Positions 40,824 through 61,123 of a DNA stretch of 64,000 bases are shown one piece after another (positions within the stretch are counted from its first letter, which is position 1; every line of letters begins with the position of its first letter). The notes under the pieces are model-generated. The model saw nothing but the letters and a program-made list of their open reading frames with translations, had not been told where the DNA came from and made no database searches. The translations under genes and the position numbers were made by a program. This DNA comes from Candidatus Spongiisociaceae bacterium. GTDB taxonomy: Bacteria; Actinomycetota; Acidimicrobiia; Spongiisociales; Spongiisociaceae. The DNA is taken from the NCBI GenBank assembly GCA_965262915.1, contig OZ253564.1, positions 4,352,001 to 4,416,000 on the forward strand, in the 5' to 3' direction.

Positions 40824-41813
40824 CTACAGACGGTCGAGGACGGCCGTGACCGCACGGGCTTTGTCGGCGGCGGTGGGCAGGCTGTAGAGCTGGGTGGTTT
40901 CTACCCGGCTGTGCCCGGCCAGGTCAGCGACGAGGAACGCGTCGGTGCCCGCCCGGACCAGGCTGGTGATGAACGTGTGGCGCAGTGTGTGGGCGGTGAG
41001 CCCCTTGATGCGGGCCGCCCGCCCTGCCCGGGCTATGACTTCGCGGATCGCCCTAGCACTGAGCTGGTTCCCCAGCCGTGAGACCCACAGGGCATCGCCG
41101 CGGGCGTCGGCCCGTATCCTCAACCCAGCCCGTCGGGCCTGCCAGTCCTGCAGTGCCCGGCGGCACTCGGCGGCGATAGGCACCGTCCGGGAGCGGTTGC
41201 CTTTGCCGGATCGGACGGTGAGCACCCCCTTGCGGGCGGTGATCGCCAGGTCACCGGTCCGGAGGGCGGCCAGTTCACCGCGGCGCAGCCCCGTGTAGAG
41301 GAATGTCAGGATGATGGCCCGGTCCCGCGTGGCCATCCCCGCCGCGGCCCGGCGCAACGCCCGCACCTCGGCCTCAGCGAGGGCCTGTGGAGCCTGTTTG
41401 GGTAGCCGCTCGGGCGGCGCAGCGACCTGCAGGCCTCGGGACAGGTAGAAGTTCGACACCGCCGACAGCGCCTGGTTCACCGTGCGGGCCGCCAGGCGGC
41501 GTTCGACGAGCATCCACCGCTTGTACTCCCTCACCGCCCACTCCGCACTCCGCCGCTCGGCCTCCCGGCGGTCCTGCTCCGCCTCAGCCCGAGGCCCCCA
41601 AGCGACACTGACCACCCCCGTCGTGTGGTCAGGTATGAGCGACTCGTAGTCGTCGGGGGTCACCAGCCAGCCGAGGTAGGAGCGAGTCAGTGACAGGTAG
41701 GAGGCCTTGGTCCTCTCAGCGAGCGGCTGTCGCTCCAGCCACGTCCCGTAGCGCGTGTACGCCGACACAGCCGCGGGGGCGTCCAGGTCGCGGAGCGGTG
41801 TCGGCCGGGTCAT
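40824..41813 (-). CDS. XerC/D-type tyrosine recombinase
   Basis: TGLRRGEL, GKG, HTLRHTF, LAGH..TTQLY; no IntI-specific insertion evident. Confidence 0.93.
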   Translation of the reverse strand: MTRPTPLRDLDAPAAVSAYTRYGTWLERQPLAERTKASYLSLTRSYLGWLVTPDDYESLIPDHTTGVVSVAWGPRAEAEQDRREAERRSAEWAVREYKRWMLVERRLAARTVNQALSAVSNFYLSRGLQVAAPPERLPKQAPQALAEAEVRALRRAAAGMATRDRAIILTFLYTGLRRGELAALRTGDLAITARKGVLTVRSGKGNRSRTVPIAAECRRALQDWQARRAGLRIRADARGDALWVSRLGNQLSARAIREVIARAGRAARIKGLTAHTLRHTFITSLVRAGTDAFLVADLAGHSRVETTQLYSLPTAADKARAVTAVLDRL

Positions 41814-41866
41814 TGGGGCTCCGTTCGGTGGGGGCAGCAACTCGGAGGGGTGGGGTCGGGTCCCCT

Positions 41867-41963
41867 ATTGGTGGCCGTTCGTTTCGGCCCTTCACCCCGG
41901 TTCTCGAGCCGATTGTAGGCCGTTCGACCCCCCACGTTCGGCATTCAATGGGCATTGTCGGAC
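41867..41963 (+). other. Integrase-proximal composite site (two direct repeats plus core), family 1
   Basis: ATTGGTGGCCGTTCG 41867, ATTGTAGGCCGTTCG 41912, core GGCATTCAA-TGGGCA-TTGTCGGAC 41940-41963. Confidence 0.65.
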
Positions 41964-42149
41964 GGTCCTGCCCCGTGTCGGTTGGGGCTCTACCTCGCCA
42001 GCGTCGCTGTCATTGCCCGTGCCCCATCAGCGACATTCACCCGCACGGCTCTCCCATCTTGGCCGAGCCCACCTATCAGTCCGATGTTGGGGGTGGAGGA
42101 CAGAGTGGCTATCTTGGGGGTGGTGGGTTTGTTCCGAGAGTGGTGTTGA

Positions 42150-42848
42150 GTGGCTCCGTGTGTTGGAGCCGTTCCGGAGTTGGGTGAGTTAGCGACACGG
42201 GCGCATAGGCGTTATAGCACGGTGCAGGAGGCGGCCACGGCTGCGATACGCGACGCGATCCTGTCGGGGGTGTTCGGTCCTGGGGACCGGCTGCGTCAAG
42301 AGCACTTGGCTCGGGAGTTGATGGTGTCCCGTGTTCCGGTGGCGACTGCTCTGCGGGCTCTTGAGACGGAAGGCCTGGTGGTGTCTGTTCCTCATCGGGG
42401 GGCGACGGTGCGTATCGTCGAACCCGCGGAGGTGGACGAGATATACCGGTTGCGGGTCGTGTTGGAGTCGTTCGCTCTGCGGTCAGCGGTCGGACGGATC
42501 ACTGCTGATGAGGTTGAGGAACTCGCGGCGCTGGCGCAGTTGATCGACGGGGTGGGAGACGGTGAGGGGGCTCGTGTCCTCAACGACCAGTTGTACGACC
42601 GTCTCTATACGATAGGTAACTGCCCGCTGACCGCTGACATCGTTACGCGGTTGCGCGCCAACGTGGGGCGATACTGGCGGGGGCTGAGGGTGGTCCCGCA
42701 TGACCATTCCCCGCACCGTGTTCTTGTCGACGCGATCCGGTCGGGGGACTCTGCTCGGGGCGAGGAGTGGATCGCTTCCCACCTGGCGAAGGTCTCGTCC
42801 GAGTTGCAGCAACGTATCGTGGCCTACCGTTCGGGTACCGGGGCGTAA
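42150..42848 (+). CDS. GntR/FCD transcriptional regulator
   Basis: IRDAILSG..PGDRLRQE.LA..VSRVPV..LETEGLV..PHRGA. Confidence 0.92.
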   Translation: MAPCVGAVPELGELATRAHRRYSTVQEAATAAIRDAILSGVFGPGDRLRQEHLARELMVSRVPVATALRALETEGLVVSVPHRGATVRIVEPAEVDEIYRLRVVLESFALRSAVGRITADEVEELAALAQLIDGVGDGEGARVLNDQLYDRLYTIGNCPLTADIVTRLRANVGRYWRGLRVVPHDHSPHRVLVDAIRSGDSARGEEWIASHLAKVSSELQQRIVAYRSGTGA

Positions 42849-42908
42849 ACACCCGCCCCGTTGGGGCTGTGCCCCCTTCTGCTGGGGTGTGGGTGGTGTA
42901 TACCGTCC

Positions 42909-42972
42909 TATCTAGCGAACCCCCGTTTTGTACACGATGTGCAAAGTGTCTGTTCTGTATTTTGGATGCAAT
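42909..42972 (+). promoter_or_regulatory. Putative GntR operator/promoter, homologue at 46011-46071
   Basis: CCCGTTTTG..ATGTGCAAAGTG.CTGTT.TGTAT.TTGGATGCAAT shared; TTGTATACAA-like boxes. Confidence 0.6.
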
Positions 42973-43127
42973 GGGTCTCCGTAAAGGTTTCCCGCCCTGT
43001 TGCCTTCAGGGCCTGTCCTCCGGGTCTTATCCTGAACGTTAATGGCAGTGATAGCCCACTTTGGGTTTAGGAGGTAGGTACACATCGTAGGAAGGGGACC
43101 AGGACGGAACTTCGACGATCTACCGAA

Positions 43128-43263
43128 TACGCGCCCTCCTCTGCGTCTGGATACCCAACTGGGAATCTACTCGCATCGGTCAGTCCCCCCTAAATTACGC
43201 GCCCTCCTCTGCGTCTGGATACCCAACTGGGAATCTACTCGCATCGGTCAGTCCCCCCTAAAT
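43128..43263 (+). repeat. 68-bp tandem duplication
   Basis: TACGCGCCCTCC...CCCCTAAAT twice. Confidence 0.9.
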
Positions 43264-43316
43264 ACCGATGAGCCTATTATACCGAAACGTGTTGGCTGCT
43301 CGGAAGGGAACAAGTT

Positions 43317-43949
43317 ATGAAACGAAGTTTGAGACTGCTGACGCTGGTAGTTCCGATAGTGCTATCGGTGTTGCCCGCAGCAGCCGCCGAGACGTCGGAG
43401 GCTGACTCTGACGTGTTCGCCGTGGAGCATGACATCACGGCGATCATCGAGGCTTGGAACTCGGACGGGCTGATCCTCGTGTGGGTTTCCCACGCTGATG
43501 TTGAGGTTACGGCACCGGACGGTACGACGGCGACCGCCCTGTGGACAGGCGAACTGTCGGACGGGGACAGGCTAGCGGCTGAGAGTCTGATGGACGGTTA
43601 CTTCACCTGCACCCGAAGGGTCTGGCGTCCCCGCAAGGACGCCGACTCGTGGATACACTCGAAAATCCGTCAAGTGTGTTACGGCAACCTTGCCGAGTCC
43701 CATTGGGCCGGCGTGCGGTTGCAGCGGGACGACCCCGGCGGCTGGTGGACCAGGGCCGAAGCTGAGAGTGGTTGGACTCCGGCAGACGCAGGCTGGTGGA
43801 TACACCAGCCGGTAGAGCAGCAATGCGCCTTCAATACACCTAAGCTGGACTGGCGGGCGCAGGGATACGGTGAGGTAAGGATGTCCACCGGGGATTTCTT
43901 CGAGCTTCACGATCTGAACTCTCCGGTCAGACAGAACGTCTGTACCTAA
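43317..43949 (+). CDS. Secreted protein with 4-Cys C-terminal domain
   Basis: Sec signal MKRSLRLL..AAA; hairpin downstream (~43976-44003). Confidence 0.8.
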   Translation: MKRSLRLLTLVVPIVLSVLPAAAAETSEADSDVFAVEHDITAIIEAWNSDGLILVWVSHADVEVTAPDGTTATALWTGELSDGDRLAAESLMDGYFTCTRRVWRPRKDADSWIHSKIRQVCYGNLAESHWAGVRLQRDDPGGWWTRAEAESGWTPADAGWWIHQPVEQQCAFNTPKLDWRAQGYGEVRMSTGDFFELHDLNSPVRQNVCT

Positions 43950-44028
43950 GCTGCCCCGCACAGAGGCAACAGGCAGAAGGAACCCCCGGTGTGGGGGTTC
44001 CTTCCGTTTCTGGGGAAGGAGAAACAGA

Positions 44029-44457
44029 ATGAAACGTCAGATTTGGGTAACGGTGGCTGTAGCGTTGGTCACGTTTGTGGTAGGAATGGCGGTGGGGAGC
44101 CTGTTCGCCGTTCGTGGCTGGTCTCCTGCGGCGAGGGAGAGCGAAGCGTTGCTGTGGGCAGTCGATGAGGGATTCTTGGCATACCGGGACGGTGAAGCAA
44201 CGATGAACGAGCTAGCCACCGCCCTGTACCGTTACCATCGCCGTTTCGTCGAGCCGCTACATGAGGCCCAGGTTGATTTGATGGAGAGGGGTCGTCATAT
44301 CTGCGGGATGGAACCGCTGTTCGACCAGAGACCGTTCGATACGGAAACGGTGGGGTATGGGCAGGACGACCATTGGCATGAGATACTTGGTGTGGGGGCT
44401 GAGGTCGCCGGACGGGTGGGAGTTACCTGCGATCACAGAATTACCCAACCGGGTTGA
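44029..44457 (+). CDS. Exported/membrane-anchored protein with SLH-like segment
   Basis: N-terminal hydrophobic helix; ALLWAVDEG..ATMNELATALYRY. Confidence 0.7.
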   Translation: MKRQIWVTVAVALVTFVVGMAVGSLFAVRGWSPAARESEALLWAVDEGFLAYRDGEATMNELATALYRYHRRFVEPLHEAQVDLMERGRHICGMEPLFDQRPFDTETVGYGQDDHWHEILGVGAEVAGRVGVTCDHRITQPG

Positions 44458-44670
44458 TCACATTTCCGCGCAGCCTCAACAATTCCAACGGAAAGCGATC
44501 GCAGCGCCGCCCACCACCAGAATGTCGAATCGCCGGAAGGATGAGCGCGTCGGCTCCCTGAACCGGGGTAGCTTGTACGGCGGCTGCCCGGTGTCCTGTC
44601 GATAGCGGTTGGCTGTCGGCTGTGTCACGCCCCCGAGGGTAGCCCTCGTCAGCCGCAAAAGGGGGTCCCC

Positions 44671-44694
44671 TGCGGATAATGGGCATTGGAGGAA
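44671..44694 (+). other. Family-1 recombination site
   Basis: TGCGGATAA-TGGGCA-TTGGAGGAA. Confidence 0.65.
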
Positions 44695-44752
44695 GCGCCG
44701 GTTTTGGGATCTGTCAGGCGGCTACCCAGGGGGGTCGGGTAGGATAAGGGGT

Positions 44753-45787
44753 ATGACTCTCGTTGCCCGGAGTGCGGGTCCGCCGACTGTATCGGACGCT
44801 GCCGTCGCGGCGGAAGCACTTATATCGGCCGGGGCGGAGGAGGTTCTGCTGTTCGGCTCGGTGGCGCGTGGTGACGCCGACGAATCCAGCGACATCGACC
44901 TGGTCGCTTTGTTCGCTGATATCGACTACGGGGCTCGGCGAGAGGTTGCCTGGCGCCTCGAGGTAGCCGCGCGAGAAGTGGCCGGGAGGTGGCCGGTACA
45001 GGTGGTGGTAACCGATCTGCCTGAGTGGCGTAACCGGGTGGCGAACGTGTCTGCCTCGTTTGAGAGTGCGATTAGCTCTGACGCGGTGCTAGTTGCTGAG
45101 GCGGAGTCGAGCGCTCGCCGGCCGGTGCGGTGGAACAAGGAGATGGTGCTGCCCATGAGCAACCCTGACGAAGCACTCAAGCAGTTCTCCGACCGGGTCC
45201 TGTCCCAACTGGCTGGGTTAACAGAGGGGGCAACCGTGTCGTGGGTAGAGGAGGATCTGTCCGCGCCGAGCGGAATGCAGGAAACGGCGCGGCTTCGGCG
45301 GTTGGTACGGGTCTGTACCCACTCGGCTATGGCGGTCGAGGTGGCTCGGAAGTCGCTAGCGGTACTACACGCTACTCCGACACCCCCGGCGAAGGTGCTC
45401 CGCGCGGCAGCACACAGTATCTCAGCGTGCCTGCAACTGCTTCCGCCACCAGTACGCAGCGCGGTGGAGCCACTCGTCACCGGCAGGGGGTTGAGCACGG
45501 ACGATCTGTCACAGTGGCGGATACTCGGCACCTACCCCGAGGATACGGCCTCCGTCCAGGCGCTGGCCGATCAGAAGGTGGACGACTATGTGGTCACCGC
45601 TCTCGACGTATGCGGGTTCGTGGTAAACGACCTCCGAACGGTCTTGGGGGAGACACCGGAAGTGCAGTCAGCGGAATACGAGTGGTACCGGACAGCGGAG
45701 TACCTCGGTGGGATTGACATACGCGTTGGCCGGCCGAAGGTTGGACCCTCGGCGCCCGGCCTCGACCTCCCCGGACTCGACCTCTAG
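44753..45787 (+). CDS. Nucleotidyltransferase (MNT) fused to a HEPN-like domain
   Basis: LFGSVARG..SDIDL; helical half with AVEVARKS..HSI..YP. Confidence 0.78.
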   Translation: MTLVARSAGPPTVSDAAVAAEALISAGAEEVLLFGSVARGDADESSDIDLVALFADIDYGARREVAWRLEVAAREVAGRWPVQVVVTDLPEWRNRVANVSASFESAISSDAVLVAEAESSARRPVRWNKEMVLPMSNPDEALKQFSDRVLSQLAGLTEGATVSWVEEDLSAPSGMQETARLRRLVRVCTHSAMAVEVARKSLAVLHATPTPPAKVLRAAAHSISACLQLLPPPVRSAVEPLVTGRGLSTDDLSQWRILGTYPEDTASVQALADQKVDDYVVTALDVCGFVVNDLRTVLGETPEVQSAEYEWYRTAEYLGGIDIRVGRPKVGPSAPGLDLPGLDL

Positions 45788-45797
45788 ACCGTCTACC

Positions 45798-45821
45798 TGC
45801 CTCTAATGGGCATTGGTGGAC
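45798..45821 (+). other. Family-1 recombination site
   Basis: TGCCTCTAA-TGGGCA-TTGGTGGAC. Confidence 0.65.
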
Positions 45822-45958
45822 AGTCCCGACGGGGTGCTCGTGTGGGGCGTCGAGGCGCACATCCGCAGGAAGGTTGCCTTACCAGCACCCCAGGTACCGT
45901 CGACCAGCACCGCCGGCGGGGCCACTCTCCGTGCTGAGCGATACTGCTGCTGCCGCCG
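45805..45958 (+). repeat. ~155-bp direct repeat, copy at 48849-49002
   Basis: Near-identical sequence beginning at the site core in both copies. Confidence 0.9.
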
Positions 45959-46165
45959 ATACCATCCAGATGCTTACCCCGTACCGGAGAGCGTTGGCGC
46001 ATGGCGTTCTATCTAAACGGCCCGTTTTGGATGCAATGTGCAAAGTGACTGTTTTGTATATTGGATGCAATAGCCCCTAGTCGAGGGTTTTTGGTGTATA
46101 TCCGTCGGTGTCCGTGCATTCGGGTCTAGCTTTCTACTTACTCAGAGGACTAGGAGGTATCTCTC

Positions 46166-46882
46166 ATGAAGAAACTACTCATGGCCCTGGCGGTGATTGC
46201 CTTGGTGGTTCCGGTGGCCGCTAGCGGTCTGCCGAACGATCCGGCTCCGACGCCTCCGACGGCTACCGAGGGCATGGTCATACAGGCCGATTACGTGGGA
46301 CCATTGTTCGATGGTGAGGTGCCTACGATCGAGGAAGGCGACTCATTCCAGACGGTTGTTGGTAACAGTGGCACTGGCAGTTATGAGGTTGTGTGGGAGG
46401 TCAACGGCGAAGACGGCCTACCGGCACTGCTTAGCACGCAGGAGCTAGACCAGATTCGGCTCCGGGTAGGCGGGCTGCTTGGCGGTACGGGAGGCGCCTA
46501 CGCCTATGACGACGACCCCGACTACTCGTGCGGTATCTTCATCCCTAGGCCAACCGTTACTGAAGACGAAGCGGAGGCGACTGTTGAGGGGACGTGCTGG
46601 CTTGCTGACGACGAGGACGTGCGCCTGGAGCATCGGGTTTGGGGAGGGCTACTCAGGCCAGTCATCTGGCCGCATTACGTCCCGGTCAGCTCCAACTACT
46701 CGTACCCTTGGAGTCAGGAAGATGACGACGCCGAGGTAACTGCCGACAGGTCGTGCTCCACTGACGACTCGACTAGGTGGAAGACACGGGGCCGGTCGGA
46801 AGTGAGGTTCATCCCCGGCTCGGGCACTAACGAGCACCCCTGGGTCAGGTCAGGTTATACCAGGGGACCGTGCGACGTATAA
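46166..46882 (+). CDS. Secreted protein with 4-Cys C-terminal domain
   Basis: AGGAGG RBS, signal MKKLLMALAV..AAS; hairpin at ~46907-46937. Confidence 0.82.
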   Translation: MKKLLMALAVIALVVPVAASGLPNDPAPTPPTATEGMVIQADYVGPLFDGEVPTIEEGDSFQTVVGNSGTGSYEVVWEVNGEDGLPALLSTQELDQIRLRVGGLLGGTGGAYAYDDDPDYSCGIFIPRPTVTEDEAEATVEGTCWLADDEDVRLEHRVWGGLLRPVIWPHYVPVSSNYSYPWSQEDDDAEVTADRSCSTDDSTRWKTRGRSEVRFIPGSGTNEHPWVRSGYTRGPCDV

Positions 46883-47219
46883 GGCCGCAACCTACCAATC
46901 CGAGACGAGGCGAGGGGCCAACCGGCCCTTCGCCTCTTGGCTACGAGCCGTCCTAGGCACCCCGGCTACCCCCCGTCCGCACGGAGAGACGACCCTAGCG
47001 ACCCTCTACGGGCCGCAACCCCGCTAGTTCACTCCGTCCTCACCCCCCTCCGCCCGTTAGCGACGATCCTGGTCGTCTCCCGGTACGACCCCGACTATCC
47101 CCGGCTGGGGGTTCTTGCGGGTGCTGACCCCCGTAACGTGAAGCACCCCAGGGCTAGGCGTTGGCGGGGGTGACAGTTCGTCATCGGAGAGGCTGTGTGG
47201 TTGTGGCTATGGTGCTGAT

Positions 47220-47983
47220 GTGATTTGGTCGGTGGGAGGTTTGGGTGAACTCGCGATCCGAGCGCATAGCCGTTCCGGCACGGTGGAGCAGGCGGTCACG
47301 GCTACGTTACGCGATGCGATCGTGTTGGGGGTGTTCCAACCTGGTGACAGGTTGCGTCAGGAGTATCTGGCTGGGGAGTTGATGGTTTCTCGGGTTCCGG
47401 TGGTGGCGGCTCTGCATACTCTTGAAGCGGAGGGCTTGGTGGTGTCTGCTCCGTATCGGGGCGCGACGGTGCGGATCGTCGAACCCGCAGAGATCGAGGA
47501 GATCTACCAGTTGCGGATCATGTTGGAGTCCTTCGCGGTGCGGGCCGTGATCAAGCGGATTACGGACGATGAGATCGACGAGCTCGCGGCACTGGCACAG
47601 CAGATCGACGACTCGGTGGACGGTGACCGGGCTCGGGTCCTCACCGAGCAGTTGTACCGGCGCATCTACGCCAGCAGATCGACGACTCGGTGGACGGTGA
47701 CCGGGCTCGGGTCCTCACCGAGCAGTTGTACCGGCGCATCTACGCCATAGCTGACCGCCCGTTGACCGCTGAGTTCGTTGCGAGGCTCCGCGCCAACGTG
47801 GGCCGATACTGGCTTGGTCTCAGGGTGGTGCCGCATCATCACTCAACGCACAGAGCGATCGTTGACGCGATTCGGGCGCGGGACGCTACACACGCCGAGG
47901 AATGGATCTCCGCCCACTTGACGAAGGTTTCGACCGAGCTGCAACAGCGCATCGTGAGCAGCCGTTCGGGGACCTTGGCGTAG
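47220..47983 (+). pseudogene. GntR/FCD regulator frameshifted by a 74-bp tandem duplication
   Basis: Paralogue of 42150-42848; 47598-47671 repeated at 47672-47745. Confidence 0.88.
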
Positions 47984-48312
47984 GTGCTACCACGCGGGTG
48001 TGGCGCCGTCCGGGTGCTCGTTTCGTAGCGGTCGCCCGGCTGGTAGCTGCTGTACGGTCCCGCTCCCGCGTCCGCCTGGTACTAATCATCTAGCCCGCAG
48101 GACCTCGGTTAGGCGGTACGGGCTGCGATCACGACCGGCCGGGTATCCAACGGACCCCTCGAAGGGATCAACAACCTCCTCCAAGTCCTACGACGCGAGA
48201 TGGATCGAATAACCACCCGATCGGGTTGGTTGGATGATTGACCGGTGGCGAGAGTAACACTACGGCGGGCCGGAATCGTTTCTACCGTTCGGGGGGCTTC
48301 TATGATTGCTCG

Positions 48313-48474
48313 ATGGGCCGTGTTGGATGGGCGGTATTCACCGTCGGACTGCTGATGATCCTGCTATCGGTATACGTAGGGGTAGATGTCAACGGTGTTG
48401 TGGGTGGGATTTTGGCGGGTGTGGGTGGGTTAGCTGTGATACTGGCGGGTTGGGTTGACCGGGGTCACCACTAG
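48313..48474 (+). CDS. Small two-TM protein
   Basis: MGRVGWAVFTVGLL..GGLAVILAGW. Confidence 0.5.
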   Translation: MGRVGWAVFTVGLLMILLSVYVGVDVNGVVGGILAGVGGLAVILAGWVDRGHH

Positions 48475-48841
48475 GTAGCCGGGGGGAGGGCGGTCGCCCC
48501 GTCAACAACCCATACCGCGCTGCAGGGATAGCTAGGGCCTGTCGTCCACAACCCGTGCAATACGTCGTCGGACGTTTGCTGCACCCCGAACGGCGGAGAC
48601 GGAGACGGAGGGCGTGTTCTCCTGGCTGGGCAACGAGGCCCGGCTGGTGGACGTGTCCGAGTTCCTCACCGATGACATGCCGACCTGGGACCGGACCAAG
48701 TGGGTAGCGACCGCGGGCCGAACTTGCACCCGGTCGGATGTCGGGTGAGCGGCTGTGGTGGGTTGCTGATCGGGAGTTCGGCGGACCGCTACCGACCCGG
48801 CGCGGCGGCCCGGGTCGGAACAGAAACCGCCGAGACGGACT

Positions 48842-48865
48842 GACCTCCAATGGGCATTGGTGGAC
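48842..48865 (+). other. Family-1 recombination site
   Basis: GACCTCCAA-TGGGCA-TTGGTGGAC. Confidence 0.65.
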
Positions 48866-49068
48866 GGTCCCGACGGGGTGCTCGTGTGGGGCGGCCAGGC
48901 GCACATCCGCAGGAACGTTGCCTCACCAGCACCCCAGGTACCGTCGACCAACACCGCCGGCGGGGCCACTCTCCGTGCTGAGCGATACCGCTGCTGCCGC
49001 CGTTGCACTGCTGCCCGGCCCATGTCCGTCCAGGTTCGAGCCAGGCTAGCCCCGGCTCCGAGGGACAC

Positions 49069-49092
49069 TGCCACTCAACGGCATTGGCGGAT
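49069..49092 (+). other. Degenerate family-1 site
   Basis: TGCCACTCA-ACGGCA-TTGGCGGAT, 20 bp before the MTase start. Confidence 0.4.
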
Positions 49093-49112
49093 GCGCGACT
49101 AGGGTACGTAAC

Positions 49113-51529: not shown

Positions 51530-51781
51530 CTAAACAACCGACCACGCCAGATCCTCGGCTGGCAAACACCCCACCAAGCATTAACAGCCGTAACCAAACA
51601 AACATCTTGAACACTCCGATGCCCACGGCGTTGGTCATTGAGACGACCCACGACCACAAGGAGCCTCCACGGAGATATCGCGACGAAACACTCCTCTAAA
51701 CCTCACACGGCCGAAACAACGGGGACTGACACGCCGCTTCACTACCTCAACTCTAAGCTACAAGACAGCCATCCGTTGCGT

Positions 51782-52861
51782 TCACCGATTGAGACCACCG
51801 ACAAAACACAACGGTTTGGGTGCGTATCTGTGTATGAACTCGGCCATGGGTGTGGTCTCAGCGACCGAAGCTCCCTGTGTCGGGTTTTGGTCCCGCGACC
51901 GGTGTGCCTGGTGATAATGCGACTCGATCCACCGCCGCCAGTCGTTGATCTGTGCCACCCCTGTCCGGGTGTGCTGGTCAAAGTGATCCTTTGTTTTCAG
52001 CACCACGCAAGAGTCGGGTGTTTCGAGTTCTACCAGTACCCAACGTATCCCGTTCGAGTCGATATCCGCGAGCAGGAAGTCAGCGACATACTTATCGCCG
52101 AAGTGGACCTTCGGGCGGCAGTACCGTGACGGTCCTCGCAGCAGTGAGGCAAATAGTTGGGGACGTTCCTCCAATAGTTCCTGGATCGGTTTCTCACAAG
52201 TCGCTTCGTCAATGACTCGTCTTAGCTCTTCAATGTCCGCGTCGGTCACGTCGTCGGTTACCGCGTAGGGCTCCAACGCGGCCAGCTTCTCCTTGGAGAT
52301 CGTCTTTGTGCGTGCGCGTTTCGCGGCCCGGTTCTTGGCGATCTGACGCGCTTGGGTGCTGTCCTCTGAGTTGTCGCCGTGCCCGGCGATCATTGTCAGT
52401 TGGTCGGGCCAAGCGCCGGCACCTCGGCCGCCGGTGAAATACACCCGTCCGTCATCTCCGATCGACGAGACCTCATCGAACCGCCTGGCAGACGGGTTTC
52501 GTGACACCACGTCACCCTTCGCCAACCGGAGCTGCTCCAACGACTGCAGGCGTTGTCTCAAGTACAAACACCGGATCCATGCTTCGGCTTCCTCATAGCT
52601 GTCAACCGCGGCTGGTATCGCGACAGACATCGTCGCGGCCAGCTCCGCCATGAACTCCTGCTGCGCATCGGTGCTCTTGCGCGGAGCGACCCCGAAATGG
52701 CTGTCCACAGCCGAACGCACCCGGGCTGCAGCCACCAGTTGTGGCAGGCTCTCGGGCAACTCCACACCTACAGACGACGCGAACGCCCGAGAGTCTTCGT
52801 CACAGCGGGCAATCGTGCGGCGAATAGCCGCTACAGCACCTTCCCAGCTTGTACGCGCCAA
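51782..52861 (-). CDS. Shedu (DUF4263) nuclease with N-terminal extension, probably 3'-truncated
   Basis: EKPIQELLE..P, ADFL, LVELETP, GVAQINDW; tail after ..SRDQN looks non-homologous. Confidence 0.75.
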   Translation of the reverse strand: MARTSWEGAVAAIRRTIARCDEDSRAFASSVGVELPESLPQLVAAARVRSAVDSHFGVAPRKSTDAQQEFMAELAATMSVAIPAAVDSYEEAEAWIRCLYLRQRLQSLEQLRLAKGDVVSRNPSARRFDEVSSIGDDGRVYFTGGRGAGAWPDQLTMIAGHGDNSEDSTQARQIAKNRAAKRARTKTISKEKLAALEPYAVTDDVTDADIEELRRVIDEATCEKPIQELLEERPQLFASLLRGPSRYCRPKVHFGDKYVADFLLADIDSNGIRWVLVELETPDSCVVLKTKDHFDQHTRTGVAQINDWRRWIESHYHQAHRSRDQNPTQGASVAETTPMAEFIHRYAPKPLCFVGGLNR

Positions 52862-53099
52862 CCGTTCTCCTCCCGACTCGGCGACGGTAGCCGTCTGTGA
52901 CCGGACCGTCTACAGGTTGACAGGATGACCGCCCTTCGAATAGTGGCTTCGGTGCCAAGCACATCGTCGTAGCCCACCTATGATGCTGATCGCCCATCTG
53001 CCCTGGACCAGAGAACCGCCGCCCGGATCGCCCATCGTCGGTAGGACATTAAGGATCTTCCGTAGTCTGGGTTCTCAGCAACCGCCTGGTCTAGGGTTC

Positions 53100-55035
53100 C
53101 TACCCGATGCCGGCCGCTGGACTAAGTGCTTCAACGTCTCGGTCCGAGATTCGCTGGATCAGTCGGTAGACCCTTCCTGCTTTAACTGCGCCATCCACAT
53201 AGTCTTGGTAGGCCTGCAAGGCGTTCTCGATCAGTTCGTCGTACATCACCACTCTCGCGCTGGACGCGCCAAGCACTTCTCGAGAACGCCGCTCACTCGT
53301 AGAAGTATCGCCCCAATCGCTTAGTGGTCTGCCGACGACGCAGACTATCTCTACGGGTTCGTTGCTCCGGCCGGCTGCGGCGAGTATTTTCTCAGCGGCA
53401 GTGTAATATTTTGATACTTGCTCGTTCAGAGCATTGGTAGTGATGCGTCTCTGCGCCCGTTTGAGTTCAATGATGACGTGCTTGTTCCCGGTGGTGCTGT
53501 ACTTGACATCCACCCTTGCCCGCTTCTGTTCTGCGGTCAGCGCATCGCACACCTCGTCGAGAGCGGTTTGCATGCTTCTTTCCATGTGCTCGGTGCGGGT
53601 TGCTCTCTCCCAGGAAGGGTCTAGCAGCCAGAGATGCTTGTACAGGTGCTCCTGCATCGCCCGCTCCTTGGCGTTCTGCTGCAGGACGTCTAGGTTATGC
53701 GTCCGAGGTCGTCCAGTTGGACGAACACCTGCTGATCTGGTCCAGTCTGTGGAGCAGGTTCCTGAGCTTGAGGCTCTCGAAAGCGAGGACACCACTCACG
53801 ACGAGTTGTCTCTTGTTGGGCTCGCCCTCAATCGGCAATTCGTTGATGCGACCGAATAGCCGCCGGGCGGCCACCTTCTGGTCAGGGTCCAGTTCTGTGA
53901 ACCACTCTTGGATCCCCGGGTAAGCAACGGCCTGCTTCGTTCCCTGTGACCTGCGCAGTTCGGTCCATCGACTCTGGACGTACTTCAGCTCATACCGTAG
54001 CTTGGTCTTGAGGGCTTGGTAGCGGGGGTCCTCTTCGATGAGCTTCTGGCGGCTTGTGGTGGCTATGTCCTCTTCGTCATCCATGTCAAGGAAGTCGGCG
54101 TGGATCTCGCCGAGTATGTACTTGGTGTAGAGGCCGCCCTCGCCGAACTCTTCCAGAATGTCCTCTTGGGCCAGCTTGCCCCGGACGAGGACCACTAGCT
54201 TGTTGATACTTTCGGATGTCTCCGTATCCTTGAGTTGCCCCGCCTTGGAGGCCGTTCCGATCCACCCGTCGATAACCCACTCGGGGTGCCCCTCTATCTC
54301 ACCGGAGCGGGTGTCATGGTTCTCGAGGTTGCTGGCCGTGCTAGCAACGCTTTGGCCTAGGTCACCGAGGGTCCAGATGTACTGGACTTTGTCCTGGTAT
54401 TCGCGGTCGGTTGCCGTTATCGGGTGGCCGTCCAGTGTGATCTCGAACCGGTGTTCTGGTCCGATGATGCTGAATCGCCGGGCGAGGCGCCTTCTCAACG
54501 GCTTGCCTGTCCACTGGAGTTGGCGCTTCATGTCCGTAAGGGTGATGCGGGTGCCTTGGTCGAGGTCGACCTCATGCGCAACCGGGTCAGGCTCGTATTG
54601 TCCTTCGGCGCCGTTTCGGAGTTTCGTCTTGATGTCTTCCGCGTTCATGACGAAGCCGTGCTTCTGGCCACGGGCAACGCTCTCGACTTGGACGGTACGG
54701 GTGATCGAGAACAGGGACAGCTTCCCGATTCCCTTGCGTCCCATGACCGCTCGACCGAACCGCGGGGTCAGGGGTTCGGTGTTGCGCCGCTCGTATCCGA
54801 CGTGCAAGTACTTCTGGTTGGCGTCTTCAACCGTCATGCCGTGCCCGTCGTCCTCAATCACCACCCGGCCCTCAGTCGCATTGATGGATATCCGAACATG
54901 CTCAGCGTCGGCATCCCACGAGTTAGCAACCACCTCCGAAAGTACTGCAGCCACGTTCGAGTACAGCCCGAGGCCCAGGTGCCGGAGCACGTTCAAGCTC
55001 ACAGTCATCTGATACTTCGGACGGCCGGTACTCAC
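53100..55035 (-). pseudogene. GHKL-ATPase/nuclease restriction enzyme (HgiDII-like), frameshifted
   Basis: EVVANSWDA, DDGHGM, GRKGIGK; C-terminal HLWLLDPSWE, RVD..IIELK in another frame; break near 53690-53730. Confidence 0.82.
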
Positions 55036-55491
55036 TCCGTCTCCTCCAGGTGAGCTACGATCGAGCTACCGATCGCCTCGCCTAGTTGGACCGGGACAGC
55101 ATTACCGATGAGGCGAGCCATAGGCTTTATCTTCACAGCGGTACCTTCAGGAACGAACGAGTAGTCGGCCGGGAAGGTCTGGAGTAGGGCACCCTCTCGC
55201 AGGGAGATAGCACGATCCTGTTCGGGATGGCCGAACCGTCCGTTCCCAAAGCCAGGGAACTGTGTGGTGATGGTAGGGGCCGGACGGTCCCACTCCATTC
55301 GCCCATAAACCCCCGGATAGGTACGCCCGCTGGGTCTGGTATGGCAGGCGGCCCGTAGAGACTTGTCCCAGTCCCGCCACGTTCCGCCAGCCTTGGCCTC
55401 GCGGATGCGCCTGAGGTTCTTGCTGGAGAGCCCCCTCGCCTTGTGTAGAGGATCAGACTTGCCGACGCCACCAGCCGGGATCGACTCTAAA
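55032..55491 (-). pseudogene. C5 cytosine DNA methyltransferase, 3' half (inverted)
   Basis: LESIPAG..YGRM.WD..PTITT..HPEQDRAISLRE..LQTFP..IGNAVP. Confidence 0.92.
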
Positions 55492-57307
55492 CCTGAATCC
55501 ACCGACGGCCTCCCCGGGGGGTGGTCCGGGGTGCGGTTGGTGGGGGGTTGAGGGGTTGGGGCTGGTTGGATTCGGGGGGTTTCGGGGGTGTGGTGGGTGT
55601 GGTTTGGTGGGTTAGGTGGTGTTGGAGGCTGGTTGGGATGGTTTCGGGCGTGTGTGGCTGGGGTTTGGGTGGTTGGTTATGGTTGTGAGGGGTCCGTCGG
55701 GCCGGGTTAGCTGAGTTGGGGCAGCGCCCGGAGGTTAGTGAGGGTGGTTAGGTAGGCGCTGGCCTAGGGCCATCGGGCGGGTAGACGCAGCAGGCGGCGT
55801 CCGCCATGGTTCACGACCCGTCCAGGGAGCCCGAACAGTCGGGTACGGATAGTTCGTCCACAGACCAGCCGCCCAGCCCGATGCGTACCCCCGAGGAGGG
55901 CTATCTGCCGGTAGAGGTTATGAGCTAGGGCGGCGCAGATCAGCCAGGCGGCGTTAGCTGCGAAGACGCCGGAGGGTAGGTGGGCGAGACCCCCGGAGTC
56001 TTTGAGGTCGCGGATGGCGAGTTCGCATGTGGCGTGGCGGCGGTGGTACCGGTCGGCTTCGACCGCGGGCAGCGGGCTGTGCGCCTCCCCAGGGTTGTCA
56101 CCGGTCTCTACCGCCGACAGTTCGGCCACTTCGGTGTCTTGTTCGCCTCGGCGGGGTTGGTGGCCGGTGTCGTCTTGTCCGGCCCCGGGTTGGTGGTGCC
56201 GGTCGGCTTCGACCGCGGCTAGGTCCAGGTTGGTGACCAAGGTGTGGTACCGCCAGTCGGGCCATAGCTGGGCTTGGGAACCGAGCAGGCGGGTGCGGCG
56301 CACCACGAGACGGACCCGGCGCCGCTGCGACCGTTTCTTGGGGTTGGTCATCTCCAGGACGGTTTCCCCCACTTGTGCTTCGCCGCCCCGGGGATAGTCG
56401 ATGGGGGTCCACGCGTCTTTGTCGATATTGCTGATCAGTGTCCTGACCTTGTCGTTCACCTGGGTGGTGATCGACCATCCCACCCCGAGGTGGTCGAGGG
56501 CGGCCAAGAGGGCATAGGACCAGAACCCAGAATCGGCCCGCACGCTCACCGGGCCCCTGGCCCCGGCCCGTCGCACACGCCGGATCGTCTCCCCAACGAA
56601 ATGGACCACACCCCGCTGCGATGCTCCTGCACGCAGACGGGCACCGACCACCTCCCCCGTATCGGCTCGGAACGCCAACAGAGGGTGATAACCCAACTCC
56701 TTGGTGTAGCCGTAAGCGGCCCCTTGTTTGGTCTTGCCCGACACCGCACAGATCGTCGAGTCCAAATCAACGGTCACCGCTCCCTTACCGGGACCGGCGC
56801 CCGCCCGCCACGCACGACCCAGCGTCAAGGTCACCACCTTCTCCAACTGGCGTACATGACCCCAGGTGAACGAACGCAGGAAGGTTCCCACCGTGGAAGG
56901 GGCCATCACCGCATGGGGCAACACCCGATCAGTGGAACCCGCCCGGAGCCGACCCACATGATCAATATGAGAGGCGCCCACCAGCATCGCAGCTACCAAC
57001 GTGCACACCTTACGACCCGGATGCGCGCCACCCACCCGGCCGCCCAACCGCACCGTCCGATCCACCAAACCTTCCAAACCCAAACGGTCCATCAACGTCC
57101 CGGCCGCCAACAACCCAGCGTCGGCCACCAGCCCCTCATCATCGAAAACCGCCTCATACCGGTCGATATTCTGCAATACTCCACTCACAGGAAGTGCCTC
57201 CAGACTCCGAGCCAATCACCATGTTTCGTATGGCTATTGTCCCAGATCAGAGGCACTTTCCGCGTCTATCCACCCCCAACCACAGGATATCTACCGGTGG
57301 ATTCAGG
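55492..57307 (-). mobile_element. IS1380-family element, copy B (premature stop at 55764)
   Basis: Same TIRs as copy A, inverted orientation, diverged paralogue. Confidence 0.92.
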
Positions 57308-57344
57308 CTTAGCGGGTGACTGGGACGTGGTTGTTCGTGTTTGT

Positions 57345-57860
57345 TTATGTCCACCCGACGGTGAGTTTGCGTAGTAGGGCAGTGAGGGCTGCTTGTTCGT
57401 CTTTGTTAAGTACGTCGAGTCGTTGTAGGCGGTTGCGGGTGCGTGTCTGCACCATGCGCTCGGCGCTGGCGATGCCGTCAGGGGTGATGGCAAGGTTGGT
57501 TGACCGGCGGTCGGTAGGGTGGGGCACTCGTCTTGCGTACCCGCGTTGTTCGAGGCGGTCTATTCGGCTGACCATCGTTGCAGTGGTCATGCCTAGGTGT
57601 TTGGACACGTCGGTTGCGGTCACTGACTCGCCGTGGTGTCGGGCTGTGCGCAGGTACGCGAGTACTTGGTAGTCGCCTTGGTTGGCTAGTCCCTCGGTGG
57701 CGGCTATTTGGTCCATTGCCTCTCCTAGGAGGCTGGCGAGTTGCTCGATTCGGGCTGCTGGTTCGATCTCCCATACGGAGTTGTCTGACAGCGCCCGTTC
57801 CCATCTGCGGATCTTGCGTGTGATGATGTCTTCGGTGTGCTGTGTGGTTTCGCTGCGCAT
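57345..57860 (-). CDS. MarR-family regulator
   Basis: IDRLEQRGYARR.PHPTDRRS..TPDG. Confidence 0.85.
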   Translation of the reverse strand: MRSETTQHTEDIITRKIRRWERALSDNSVWEIEPAARIEQLASLLGEAMDQIAATEGLANQGDYQVLAYLRTARHHGESVTATDVSKHLGMTTATMVSRIDRLEQRGYARRVPHPTDRRSTNLAITPDGIASAERMVQTRTRNRLQRLDVLNKDEQAALTALLRKLTVGWT

Positions 57861-57889
57861 TCTCCCTTGCTCCGGTTCGTATCGGGAAC

Positions 57890-57933
57890 GCGGCTGGTTT
57901 CACGGCGATGTTTCCGGCCGTGAAACCAGTGCC
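57890..57933. terminator. Hairpin downstream of 57966-58631
   Basis: CTGGTTTCACGGC..GCCGTGAAACCAG inverted repeat. Confidence 0.55.
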
Positions 57934-57965
57934 GCCCCGGTGTGGACGGGTGTGTTTGGTTGGCT

Positions 57966-58631
57966 TTACGAGGAGGCTGGCTGTGCGTTCTGTAGTTGTG
58001 TCCGCATTCCGTCAAGGTCGGTGGGGACGGTTCCGGTGGTGAACCGCTCCGGCATCCGCGACTCCACGGTCCCGCTGTCGGAGACATCGAACACGCCGTT
58101 GTCGAGGCCCAGCGTTATGTAATAGGTTTGGTCGAGTGCGCTGCTGGTGCCGGGGAACTGCAGTCGGGGTGATGCTTCCTCCAGGCTGCGGCCTTTGAGG
58201 AACAGCAGCACTTTCTGGCCTGATCCGAGTGGGGTGAGACCGTCAGCTATGACCACCTGCTCGGTGTCGATGCGCCAGATGAGGACCGTGTCGCTGTGCT
58301 GGCCCTTGAGCGTCTCGGACACAGCAACCTCGTAGAACACAATGGGTATTGGGGTTATCCCGGCTCGTTCGTAGTCGGTCCTTTCGTTCGGGTCGGCAGT
58401 GCGATAGTCCTTCGCTCGTGCCGCCACTCCGGAAACGGTACCGACTACTACCAGGTCGGATGAGGTTGCCAGTTCGTCCAGCGACTGGTACACGAGGGAG
58501 CTGAACGCCATGTGCCGAACACCGGTGTCGTCGTCGCGCAGCAGTGTTACTGCCGCCGCTGCGGCCACCATGGCTGCGAGGGCCACGACGATGAGCATCC
58601 TTGCTCGGTAGAGCTGTCTGCTTGCTGTCAT
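57966..58631 (-). CDS. Membrane-anchored exported protein
   Basis: N-terminal TM; YQSLDELATSSDLVVVGTV..GQKVLLFL. Confidence 0.75.
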   Translation of the reverse strand: MTASRQLYRARMLIVVALAAMVAAAAAVTLLRDDDTGVRHMAFSSLVYQSLDELATSSDLVVVGTVSGVAARAKDYRTADPNERTDYERAGITPIPIVFYEVAVSETLKGQHSDTVLIWRIDTEQVVIADGLTPLGSGQKVLLFLKGRSLEEASPRLQFPGTSSALDQTYYITLGLDNGVFDVSDSGTVESRMPERFTTGTVPTDLDGMRTQLQNAQPASS

Positions 58632-58697
58632 CTTTATCGTCCTCCCTTTCGTGGTTGGGTGGGCACGTCGGCTCGTGTTGTCCTACTCACTCGTGCA

Positions 58698-59315
58698 TCA
58701 GGGGTAAACGTCCCTCACGCCCGCCCGGTCGTCAGCCGCCGGGAATGACGTGCAAGCGTTCAGGGCTTCGGGGACGTTCATGACCCGGCACGCCCAGGAG
58801 CGCTCGTCAAGCCCGTAGGCATGCCCGAGTTCATGTACGGCAATGACGACCCGTTGGGCGTCTGTGAGCGACCCGGTGTTGCTGGCATCGAAATCGATCG
58901 TGACCTCGTTGCCGCTGTACTCCCCACTGCTGCAGGCCCAGGACGCTAAGGCGTAGTTGTCGCTGCTGTAGGACCCGTCAATGACGTTGATCTCGGGATC
59001 CGGCGACGCTGACCGCTCGCTGAAGTGCCCGGGTACGTCATACGCCGAATCCCAGTCCGCCTGTCCGTCGCCGAACGCGTCCTCGTGGTCGTCGCTCACG
59101 GAGAAGAAGCGGTAGGAAATGGGGCTGATCGAATCCGGGTCGTACTTGCATCCGTGCAGCTCGTAGGCGGCAGCCGCCTTCGGTAACACCACCATCAAGG
59201 CGAGGGCAGCAAACAGGGCGGCAACCGCGGCCACCTCGATCCTCCAGTACGGCGACCCCGACACGACTCGGCAGGCAGGCGCGCCGGTCTCTTTGTGGCG
59301 GTTGAGATACCTCAT
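58698..59315 (-). CDS. Secreted metzincin-like zinc metalloprotease
   Basis: Signal ..AAAY; HELGHAYGLD, Met-turn VM, DDRAGV..Y. Confidence 0.8.
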   Translation of the reverse strand: MRYLNRHKETGAPACRVVSGSPYWRIEVAAVAALFAALALMVVLPKAAAAYELHGCKYDPDSISPISYRFFSVSDDHEDAFGDGQADWDSAYDVPGHFSERSASPDPEINVIDGSYSSDNYALASWACSSGEYSGNEVTIDFDASNTGSLTDAQRVVIAVHELGHAYGLDERSWACRVMNVPEALNACTSFPAADDRAGVRDVYP

Positions 59316-59420
59316 CTGCTCCCTCTCCTTCCCAGCCCCGCTGAGGGACTGTCTAGAAGCCTTCCCACACCGGAGGCCCGATATAGTACGGAGTCAGATT
59401 ACTCGAAGCTGAACTATCGT

Positions 59421-60853
59421 GGCTCATCGGATTTCAGTGGGGAGTGACCGATGGGAGTAGGTCCCAGTTGGGTTTCCCCGCGTAGAGAAGGGCGCGGATT
59501 CGGTAGTTCGCGAAGTTGCGGAACCCGAACGCTGCTCGTTTGATCCGTTTGATGAGGTTGTTGAGGGCTTCGGTGGGTCCGTTGGTTACCTTCGAGATGT
59601 GCCAGTTGGTGATCTGGGGGGTCCAGCGGGCGATGGTACGACCCAGCTTGTTGATCTCGGGTGGGCAGGATTCGTGTTGGAGGTCGTCTGCGAGCTGGAG
59701 GGTGTATCGGAGAGCAAGGACCGGACTCTCGATCCCGTAGATGCCTCGTACCGTCTCTTTCGCGTGCCAGGCTGTGCGCACTTCCCCGTAGGGGTCACCA
59801 GCATCGAGGAGACCACGCAGCCGTATTTGACCCCGGTCGCTGATCCTCTCATGCGCAGCGGTTAGGAGCCGCCGTATCCGATACAGCGGGTCATCCTTGC
59901 GGCCTCGATGCCCGAGGGTTTCGTTTTGGACTCTTCGTCGTACCTCGTCGAGACGCTGGTTGGCGAGGCGGATGACGTGGAACGGGTCCGCTACCTGCAG
60001 CGCGTGCGGCAGCACCCTGTCATACGCCTTCCGATACGAACCGGACATGTCCAACACCGCCCAGCGGATAGCCTCACACCATTCGGTGGGTTGTGACCGG
60101 AACCAGGCTGCGGCGCTTTCTGCTGTTCTACCAGGGACTATGTCGATCAGCTGGTGGCCGCCAACGTCGACGACAGAGGTGCACCAGACTTTGGTACGCC
60201 AACGGCCCCGACGCCAGAACAACGTCTCGTCCACTCCCACAGCTTCGACGGTCCCGACCCGATCGGTGTCTGCTTCCAGCAGCGCTTCGCCCCAGCGGCC
60301 AACCTCTTTGTTCACCGTATGCCAATCACAACCAAGTTCTGCGGCGACCTCGTCGACCGAACGGCCCCGCCCACCCACCTGGATGGTCACCCACCGGGCC
60401 GCTCGGGATGTCAACAACGCCCGTTGGGGACCAATCTTGGGGTCTTGTTCGATGAACGATCTGAGCGCACAGTCGGGGTTCGGACATGTCCAGCGCCGTT
60501 TCCGCCACCGCAGCCGCACAGGCCGGCCGAACGCCGGTAAATCCACCAACACAACCGTCCGATAGCCCTTCGACCACACCGACCCGCCACAGGACTCACA
60601 CAACGGCCGGGGCTTGCGGGACCGGATCACCACCTCCAACGGTGCCTCCTCGCCCGGGTCGTTGATCCCTACCAGATCAACCTCACCTAGGCCTACCAAC
60701 TTCTCGCACATGCGCGTAGGATCAGCTTCCACAGGGGTCCTCCTGCCTCGGATGTCATTACCAACACCCGATTATGGAGGACCCCTCCTCACTTCTGGTG
60801 GATTCCAACTCCCCCTGGCAGATCCCCTACTCCCCACTCATTTCCGAAGAGCC
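59421..60853 (-). mobile_element. ISL3-family element, intact (transposase 59434-60732)
   Basis: Ends GGCTC(A/T)TCGGA; 8-bp duplication ACTATCGT (59413-59420, 60854-60861). Confidence 0.95.
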
Positions 60854-61099
60854 ACTATCGTGCAACTAGTAGTGTGCACGGCGAGCTGGCAGCATAACCC
60901 CATCCCGGCCTTGGGACCGTGCACGCTGCGAACCGCGCACTTGCCAGAGCAAGCACGTGGGGGGAGCAGAGCTACAAGGTATCCCCCGTGTACGTGAGGG
61001 CCCCGCCCATCTTTGGCGACCTGGTTCAGCCCTCATCGCGTCGGTAAGGACTGCTCGCCCTCTACCGGCGCATGCCGCACAACCCGAGGCCTCGCGTAC

Positions 61100-61123
61100 G
61101 TCCGACAATGGGGATTGGCGGCC
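61100..61123 (+). other. Family-1 recombination site (distal)
   Basis: GTCCGACAA-TGGGGA-TTGGCGGCC; left arm is the exact reverse complement of the 41955 right arm. Confidence 0.55.

Follow-up and report, generated by a model that had tools for sequence, protein, structure and literature searches.

A probable gene-cassette platform with a dedicated Xer-like recombinase and 24-bp two-arm sites in a Candidatus Spongiisociaceae genome

A 64,000-nt stretch of the genome of a Candidatus Spongiisociaceae bacterium (G000:C1:4352001-4416000, hereafter the window; G000 is this genome, and other G numbers denote related genomes) contains a tyrosine recombinase gene and, beginning just upstream of it, a row of short gene segments separated by imperfect palindromes. 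We consider it likely that this locus is a cassette platform that works by site-specific recombination, with a dedicated Xer-like recombinase, double-strand two-arm sites and an integron-like layout. In our best reading, it is closest in chemistry to the dif modules of Acinetobacter plasmids, and is a member of neither the integrons nor the dif modules. The sites span 24 bp in a 9-6-9 arrangement, with the consensus TGCCTCTAA-TGGGCA-TTGKNGGAN.

The original prediction, made from the window alone, listed six 9-6-9 sites, and the coordinates were correct for all of them (S1 to S6, Table 1), as were their intergenic position and single direction. The 11-mer core pattern AATGGGCATTG matched the window six times with at most one mismatch, compared with 0.45 expected matches, and none of 100 shuffled sequences reached six. 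The match at 58341 (AATGGGTATTG) lies within an open reading frame (ORF), was not among the island hits above 10 bits and was dropped as a chance occurrence. We scanned the complete genome, a single contig of 5,055,038 bp, with a position matrix built on 20 sites from three genomes; eight hits exceeded 18 bits and nothing else exceeded approximately 16 bits. Seven of the eight fell within 77 kb; the motif is not genome-wide, and the site at genome position 1124575 is a lone one, 3.27 Mb away. Altogether 29 hits exceeded 10 bits, and S5 (10.5 bits) is by itself not significant; its spacer differs at two positions and its otherwise invariant AA at one, and it is counted solely because it is in register with the other sites. 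A weak partner at genome position 4471254 (minus strand, 12.8 bits) is also in register with strong sites. An exact 11-mer at genome position 637032 lacked the arms, scored below the 13-bit listing threshold of the first matrix and was rejected. The clustering of the sites is confirmed as real and lies far beyond chance.

The alignment of the 20 sites displayed no variation in the inner AA, in five of the six spacer positions (the C of the spacer is G once), in the T-G that follows or in the right-arm GG. Positions farther out in the arms are variable, and the arms are complementary at two to seven of nine positions; the reverse complement of the S1 right arm is identical to the S6 left arm. 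We computed the folding of 114-nt sequences comprising 45 nt on each side of a site, and 13 of 15 sites displayed no excess structure of the attC kind (z from –0.9 to +1.4). The other two, both on contig C68 of G001, were more stable (z of –2.6 and –4.0). No local inverted repeat was found to recur at segment ends.

The recombinase ORF encodes 338 amino acids (aa); it has been called elsewhere as 329 aa, which would place the start at 41813. The catalytic residues R177, K204, H275, R278, H301 and Y310 were invariant in an alignment of 15 homologues. The protein scored below the cutoff of every NCBIfam model tested: XerA (133 vs 220 bits), XerC (130 vs 335), XerD (106 vs 330), XerS (80 vs 267) and IntI (TIGR02249, 88.1 vs 265; NF011946, 49.9 vs 435). 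Its nearest solved structures are archaeal XerA proteins, and the IntI4 structure 2a3v aligns to residues 247-312 only. Judged from its sequence, the integrase is a generic Xer-like recombinase and not IntI; this and the folding results agree with the earlier statement that neither IntI nor attC is present. Simple tyrosine recombinases have been classified previously (PMC8138268). The integrase occurred in 2 of 41 relatives (E ≤ 1e-30) and in 4 of 401 genomes of the phylum (E ≤ 1e-40), G000 counted in both cases. Of 8000 candidates that were scored out of 5.8 billion clusters, 51 reached E ≤ 1e-30, and approximately 17 closer homologues displayed 54-81% identity. Scans for close integrase loci yielded one in a genome collection (L011) and one in metagenomes, the latter being the same sequence as G001:C68 (99.99% identity).

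The downstream neighbors of the integrase yielded no family hits, and the gene lies in no recognizable larger element. One such neighbor is a 150-aa ORF (40153-40605, minus strand), whose homologue in L011 has the site on one side and the integrase on the other, with a possible fusion to the integrase (a 415-aa ORF); a 91% identical copy is present in G001 on a separate contig (C65).

The enzyme and the site are linked at several loci. As predicted, S1 is located approximately 100-130 bp upstream of the intact, divergently read integrase. The same arrangement, with the site just upstream of the integrase on the opposite strand, was found at three close loci, namely G000, G001:C68 and the metagenome-assembled genome (MAG) locus L011. 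At L011, where the integrase is 79% identical, the site agrees with S1 in both arms and in the four bases that follow, whereas the spacer is TCGGGA. Five of seven loci with distant homologues (36-51% identity) possessed their own upstream 9-6-9 palindrome of the form AA-N6-TT, with a different spacer in each (L009, L014, L015, L017 and L019); none was found at L016, or at L020, which was scanned with a narrower pattern only. Conserved arms with lineage-specific spacers are the pattern that would be expected of recombinase sites. In addition, six 'primary-type' sites in four genomes have approximately 60 nt of their left flank in common, including two direct repeats of the GGCCGTT type; three of these sites adjoin an integrase (S1, C68_1460 and L011) and three do not (G001:C97, G001:C135 and G007:C84_8282). 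From its sequence, this flank possibly comprises accessory binding arms or the promoter or operator of the integrase. L009 is a G000 paralogue with 51% identity, and its own site (TGCGTCTAA-CAAGTA-TTAGACGAA) is located just upstream, at genome positions 1431675-1431698.

Given their intergenic position near the start or stop of genes, the sites could also be regarded as transcription-factor sites, or as terminators, of toxin-antitoxin or defense operons, unrelated to recombination. We find this explanation very hard to credit. The genes that adjoin the sites are unrelated and have either orientation, the sites are found together with a single integrase family in which a similar site with a different spacer is present, the 13 sites mentioned above have no excess hairpin stability, and homology breakpoints fall inside the site, as described in the following paragraphs.

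We searched the relatives with a 15-nt pattern and found seven matches each in G000 and G001, two in G007 and one in G023; the remaining 37 of the 41 genomes had no match, and a reversed-pattern control yielded none. When 401 genomes of the order were searched, 11 additional ones contained one match each, compared with two single control matches, and such single matches are near chance level. In G001, the first 141 nt of contig C75 are identical (100%) to the end of C68, and the row therefore runs from the integrase through seven sites, all in one direction and separated by 1.3-1.8 kb. The first site is followed by an AbiEii pair, and the subsequent sites, in order, by an MNT-type gene, AbiEi/AbiEii, a Fic_N protein, a truncated MNT-type gene, a pair of nucleotidyltransferase-like genes and a truncated AbiE with a longer ORF (8565-9605) without assignment; the AbiEi label and the nucleotidyltransferase 'pair' are readings of translations without a family hit. 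No further site was present beyond this ORF in the 14 kb examined.

Comparisons between arrays placed the breaks in homology at the sites. The nucleotidyltransferase-like pair of G001 also occurs between two sites on G007:C84, with C75 5958-7297 and C84 8221-6878 being 85% identical over 1345 nt; the homology decays within a few bases past the downstream site, and the neighbors differ. C135 and C68 have the right arm, spacer and right flank in common (97.7% identity), whereas their left arms and all that lies beyond them differ, and C45 and C75 have the left flank and left arm in common (96% identity) and diverge on the right side. Within the window, S3 and S4 are 95% identical over the site and 137 nt rightward, with unrelated left flanks; these 137 nt are the 5΄ piece of a minus-strand KAP-type P-loop gene, cut at the site. 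The expectation of variable genes between sites was accordingly borne out, given the different cargo of the G001 and G007 arrays and the breaks at the site.

These comparisons also bear on the possibility that an integrated plasmid or island uses the integrase, together with the site upstream of it, as a lox/dif-like module for resolution or autoregulation, with extra sites arising by duplication and unequal crossing-over and no mobility of cassettes. Most homologues do have exactly one site beside the gene, S3 and S4 look duplicated with the 137-nt flank included, and the two GntR genes of the window are paralogous (75-81% identity). However, duplication leaves the unrelated cargo between sites unexplained, as well as the junctions that share only one half-site, the G001/G007 cassette whose homology ends at the site and the lone site 3.27 Mb away. 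We regard this explanation as improbable.

Under the cassette-platform reading, the window array is resolved as shown in Table 1, in segments of 0.2-3 kb with zero to four genes each. From 42150 to 49718, all ORFs with family hits or high third-position GC content are on the plus strand, consistent with the claim of plus-strand genes in this part. The start of the segment 2 gene is 58 bp past S2 and its stop is 10 bp short of S3. For this gene, which had been called MNT-HEPN, the nucleotidyltransferase half and the spacing held, but the HEPN half did not; only the nucleotidyltransferase domain gave a hit, and no family could be assigned to the 250-aa C-terminal part. The second GntR/FCD gene, in segment 3, is split by an exact 74-bp tandem copy (47598-47745). 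A repeat of 51-70 nt, located after one GntR gene and ahead of a gene for a secreted protein, contains TTGTAC/TGCAA-type half-sites and is probably a GntR operator. The 184-nt stretch around its second copy (45985-46168) is 88-90% identical to G005 and G006 loci. The two ISL3-end remnants match the complete ISL3 copy of the window in inverted order, and the 68-bp tandem copy in the first of them is exact.

Table 1. Features of the array and its surroundings (window positions, unless a genome or contig is named)
Feature	Position	Strand	Details
Tyrosine recombinase gene	40824-41840	-	Xer-like; core-binding and catalytic domains only; Pfam Phage_integrase (4e-33) and Phage_int_SAM_4
Conserved left flank of S1	41880-41939	+	Two GGCCGTT-type direct repeats, one at 41911-41923; from the six-locus alignment
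Site S1, integrase-proximal (attI-like)	41940-41963	+	GGCATTCAA-TGGGCA-TTGTCGGAC; >18 bits
Segment 1	41964-44670	+	GntR/FCD regulator 42150-42848; operator-like repeat 42904-42972; ISL3-end remnant with 68-bp tandem copy 43116-43263; signal-peptide protein 43317-43949; membrane or secreted protein 44029-44457
Site S2	44671-44694	+	TGCGGATAA-TGGGCA-TTGGAGGAA; >18 bits
Segment 2	44695-45797	+	One gene, MNT-type nucleotidyltransferase 44753-45787 (PF01909, 6e-07; NF047752 MntA, 5e-08, below cutoff)
Site S3	45798-45821	+	TGCCTCTAA-TGGGCA-TTGGTGGAC; >18 bits
Segment 3	45822-48841	+	KAP-type P-loop gene 5΄ fragment 45806-45958 (-); operator-like repeat 46005-46071; signal-peptide protein 46166-46882; second GntR/FCD gene 47220-47983; ISL3 fragment 48142-48184; small membrane ORF 48238-48474
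Site S4	48842-48865	+	GACCTCCAA-TGGGCA-TTGGTGGAC; >18 bits
Segment 4	48866-49068	+	Only a second KAP-type gene fragment, 48850-49023 (-)
Site S5, decayed	49069-49092	+	TGCCACTCA-ACGGCA-TTGGCGGAT; intergenic
Dead type II restriction-modification system and Shedu gene	49113-57309	mixed	Family hits; inverted insertion sequence pair
C5-methylase, 5΄ half	49113-49711	+	
C5-methylase, 3΄ half	55032-55502	-	
Insertion sequence copies	49712-51529 and 55492-57309		Inverted; 94% identical
SduA-like (Shedu-type) gene	51782-52861	-	
BbrUII/HgiDII-family nuclease	53695-55035	-	439 of 659 model positions matched; overlapping ORF 53100-53795
Three ORFs without family assignment	57345-57860, 57966-58631, 58698-59315	-	Last with a weak metallopeptidase hit
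Complete ISL3 element	59420-60856	-	
Site S6, probable distal site	61100-61123	+	GTCCGACAA-TGGGGA-TTGGCGGCC; 23 bits
Strong sites outside the window (genome positions)	1124575; 4460778; 4470480	+; -; -	>18 bits
Five sites on G001:C75	1013, 2780, 4407, 5739, 7269	one direction	Spacing 1767, 1627, 1332 and 1530 bp

Core synteny with G002, G004, G005 and G006 stops near window position 25.8 kb and restarts near genome position 4481833, on either side of the arrays, which are therefore located within a strain-specific zone of approximately 104 kb that is rich in insertion sequences. A second cluster in G000 (4460778, 4470480 and 4471254) is inverted relative to the first, lies 47-57 kb away and points toward it; its genes resemble the ones around the G001 integrase, but an integrase is lacking. 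Such surroundings would suit a decayed tandem accretion, in which small islands integrated at one attachment site, most of them lost their integrases and the rows are the scars. The damaged segments (a gene fragment by S3 and another by S4, the split GntR gene and the dead restriction-modification system), the frameshift in the G001 integrase and the fact that no recombination product was seen point in the same direction. However, the segments are small (the sizes given above) and none contains an integrase remnant; a full two-arm site, and not just a short core, is regenerated at each junction; in G000 and G001 alike, the integrase is not part of the row but stands at its head; and the same small cassette occurs in two arrays with different neighbors. 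We thus hold accretion to be unlikely, although it is the strongest of the rival explanations.

Several observations weigh against a cassette platform or qualify it. Arrays were found in only three of eight genomes of one genus, the G001 integrase is frameshifted as assembled, and no close homologue of the integrase was found in G007. The stretch from 49.1 to 61.1 kb, between S5 and S6, is scrambled by insertion sequences and cannot be divided into cassettes. Four consecutive G001 segments are antisense to the sites, and two AbiE copies in G001 are mutually inverted although all sites point one way, which the simple insertion of one circular form does not explain. Site-specific inversion was rejected as the source of the antisense cassettes because the internal sites would be flipped as well. 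Furthermore, at most homologue loci the site occurs just once, and no other copy is present within 10-20 kb; the MAG that holds L011 contains its one exact site only, and the L009 paralogue site has no other copy in the G000 genome, even at six mismatches. Because most homologue loci hold a single site, the basic module may serve another purpose.

A further such observation comes from other samples. We compared four runs over positions 38000-49711, three as contig sets, from which rare variants are dropped, and one as raw reads at 1-3 fold depth; in these, we saw neither the excision circles that the original prediction had proposed to look for nor a site-to-site deletion joint. Run X5, from another sample and another study, speaks in favor of the platform. 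A 7517-nt contig of this run (depth 5) was 97% identical to the window over 38852-41964 (97 differences, 7 gaps); the match stops at the last base of S1, and 439 more letters lie beyond. A more abundant X5 strain (depth 45-93) matched 43572-48039 at approximately 99.5% identity, with segments 2 and 3 in the same order and one contig bridging S2 and S3, and its depth was near zero at 43083-43473 and past 48948. A joint between 39333 and 41561 in X5 and X6 had flanks of only approximately 18 nt and was taken as a spurious match. All three contig runs contained a joint that skips 74 nt (47597/47672), that is, the single-copy form of the tandem copy in the second GntR/FCD gene, which may represent either a true intact allele or a repeat collapse in k-mer contigs. 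This joint is no proof of misassembly, because an exact tandem copy can collapse in contigs.

On the cassette-platform reading, the system would operate as follows. The primary site would consist of the 9-6-9 core and the conserved 60-nt flank with direct repeats, adjoining the recombinase gene, and beyond it would lie a row of short segments, each bounded by a 24-bp double-strand site in the same direction. The recombinase would bind the two arms, cut at either end of the invariant 6-bp spacer (TGGGCA) and swap strands between any two sites, with the crossover in the spacer. If two neighboring direct sites recombined, a circle with a single hybrid site would be released, and this circle could recombine with any site, most likely the integrase-proximal one, resulting in insertion. 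The cargo, as assigned from sequence, consists mostly of toxin-antitoxin and defense genes (AbiE, MNT-type, Fic, DUF6036-like nucleotidyltransferases and restriction-modification), together with GntR-regulated secreted proteins. The layout of the double-strand cassette system envisaged in the original prediction stands and is strengthened by the related genomes; that this integrase acts on the sites, that circles form, that cassettes are captured or shuffled and that the system is still active is what we infer.

Integrons are the textbook recombinase-driven gene-cassette store, with folded attC sites of 57-141 nt; to our knowledge, the only other cassette system that has been documented well is that of the Acinetobacter dif modules, whose mechanism remains under debate. 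The present locus resembles an integron in that a recombinase is read away from a primary site that is followed by a same-direction row of short cassettes (in the window and in C68 plus C75 of G001), and in that the cargo is rich in toxin-antitoxin and defense genes. It differs in its integrase, which falls below the cutoffs of the IntI models, in its sites, which are 24-bp two-arm cores with an invariant 6-bp spacer instead of folded attC, and in its cassettes, which are co-oriented in G000 but antisense in part of G001, unlike promoterless, co-oriented cassettes behind one cassette promoter (Pc). The loci with an integrase and a single site and the site clusters without an integrase parallel the In0 and CALIN (clusters of attC sites lacking integrases) elements, as these are defined in a large survey (PMC4889954). 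The same survey reports no Actinobacteria genome with a complete integron.

The dif modules appear to be a closer known analogue than the integrons to which the original prediction had compared the locus. According to a study of Acinetobacter Rep_3 plasmids (PMC13141974), these modules have double-strand two-arm pdif sites with a 6-bp spacer, are small, are abundant in toxin-antitoxin modules and undergo rearrangements between sites with identical spacers; the pdif sites are plasmid-borne, are required to have alternating directions (C and D modules) and are attributed to host XerC/XerD. Double-strand two-arm sites, a 6-bp spacer and small modules that include toxin-antitoxin genes are found here as well. 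In contrast to dif modules, however, the rows here are one-directional (five sites plus one weak site in G000, seven in G001 and two in G007), the sites are chromosomal (at 4.39 Mb of the 5.06-Mb contig) and 24 bp long with 9-nt arms, compared with 28 bp for pdif, and a dedicated recombinase, rare among relatives, adjoins them.

Other recombinase-site pairs share parts of this arrangement. In Cre/loxP, XerS/difSL and TnpI/IRS of Tn4430, a two-arm site is located immediately upstream of the recombinase gene, and TnpI/IRS has extra direct-repeat motifs beside the core, similar to the direct repeats in the conserved 60-nt flank here. These systems have one site per replicon, which resolves or cyclizes DNA, whereas the site described here is multiplied into rows with variable cargo. 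In cis-mobilizable elements (CIMEs) beside streptococcal integrative and conjugative elements, composite staphylococcal cassette chromosomes (SCC) and tycheposons, direct att repeats separate recombinase-less cargo that could be moved in trans; their integrases or serine recombinases target the end of a host gene or tRNA, and the segments are usually many kb long. The layout of the window array fits that of CIMEs, but its segments have the size of cassettes, its integrase lies in no recognizable larger element and what is targeted is the platform's own site. No tRNA or tmRNA gene that could serve as an integration target was found in the window. Chromosomal Xer/dif does not correspond to what we found, namely eight sites, an integrase in 2 of 41 relatives and scores below the XerC, XerD, XerA and XerS cutoffs. 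An array of integrative mobile elements exploiting Xer (IMEX) at a chromosomal dif site in the terminus was likewise rejected, with the cumulative GC-skew maximum at 2.8 Mb and the sites at 4.39-4.47 Mb. The sites within a row are direct and intergenic, in contrast to those of shufflons or other invertible segments.

In the scrambled stretch, the C5-methylase gene is interrupted by an insertion sequence, and the 4-kb stretch between the inverted copies has been flipped, parting the gene halves; from its sequence, the BbrUII/HgiDII-family nuclease is probably frameshifted. Methylase and nuclease are contiguous in G003, G005 and G007. The methylase-nuclease module was considered as a cassette shared with relatives; its homology begins 4 bp past S5, but it occurs in differing contexts in G003, G005, G006 and G007, with no site adjoining it in any of these, and was set aside as uninformative either way. 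A Fic module beside the lone site at 1124575 was also uninformative, since its conserved end lies 46 bp short of the site and the four other genomes with the module have no site. This 1364-bp module (L004 8165-9528; G000 1123164-1124527) has exactly conserved ends in G001, G002, G005 and G006 (85-87% identity), with different neighbors in every genome, and terminates in a 9-11-9 palindrome (AGCGACAGG...CCTGTCGCT). On this sequence evidence, it may be mobile by some other route.

The insertion sequence load of G000 is very high, with approximately 40 ISL3 copies and approximately 13 DDE_Tnp_1_4 copies, and a large rearrangement relative to G005 and G006 has breakpoints near 4064298, 4377816 and 4481833. 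Upstream in the window, a 38-nt inverted repeat (38332-38369 and 38814-38851, 87% complementary) encloses 444 bp, a unit that by its sequence looks like a small non-autonomous mobile element; part of the region 38332-38851 is duplicated elsewhere in G000.

We found no description of such a system in the literature, with subscription journals and supplements outside the coverage of the search, which did return papers on integrons and dif modules. The locus could represent an independent invention of the integron principle, in which a Xer-like recombinase, with a primary site that has accessory repeats, captures, stores and shuffles cassettes by means of plain double-strand 24-bp sites, and on this stronger claim we are evenly divided. 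If it is correct, the single-site homologues elsewhere would be the empty platforms of a wider, undescribed family. A third system would show that cassette platforms have evolved repeatedly from Xer-like enzymes, and this one sits in a lineage in which integrons have not been found. The host lineage is probably Acidimicrobiia, the name borne by 4 of the 120 transketolase homologues listed, at 63-66% identity. It would offer a tractable pairing of one enzyme and a 24-bp site for experimental tests, and would add a search rule for reservoirs of defense and toxin-antitoxin genes in uncultured bacteria. The compact recombinase/site pair might also be of use in genome engineering.

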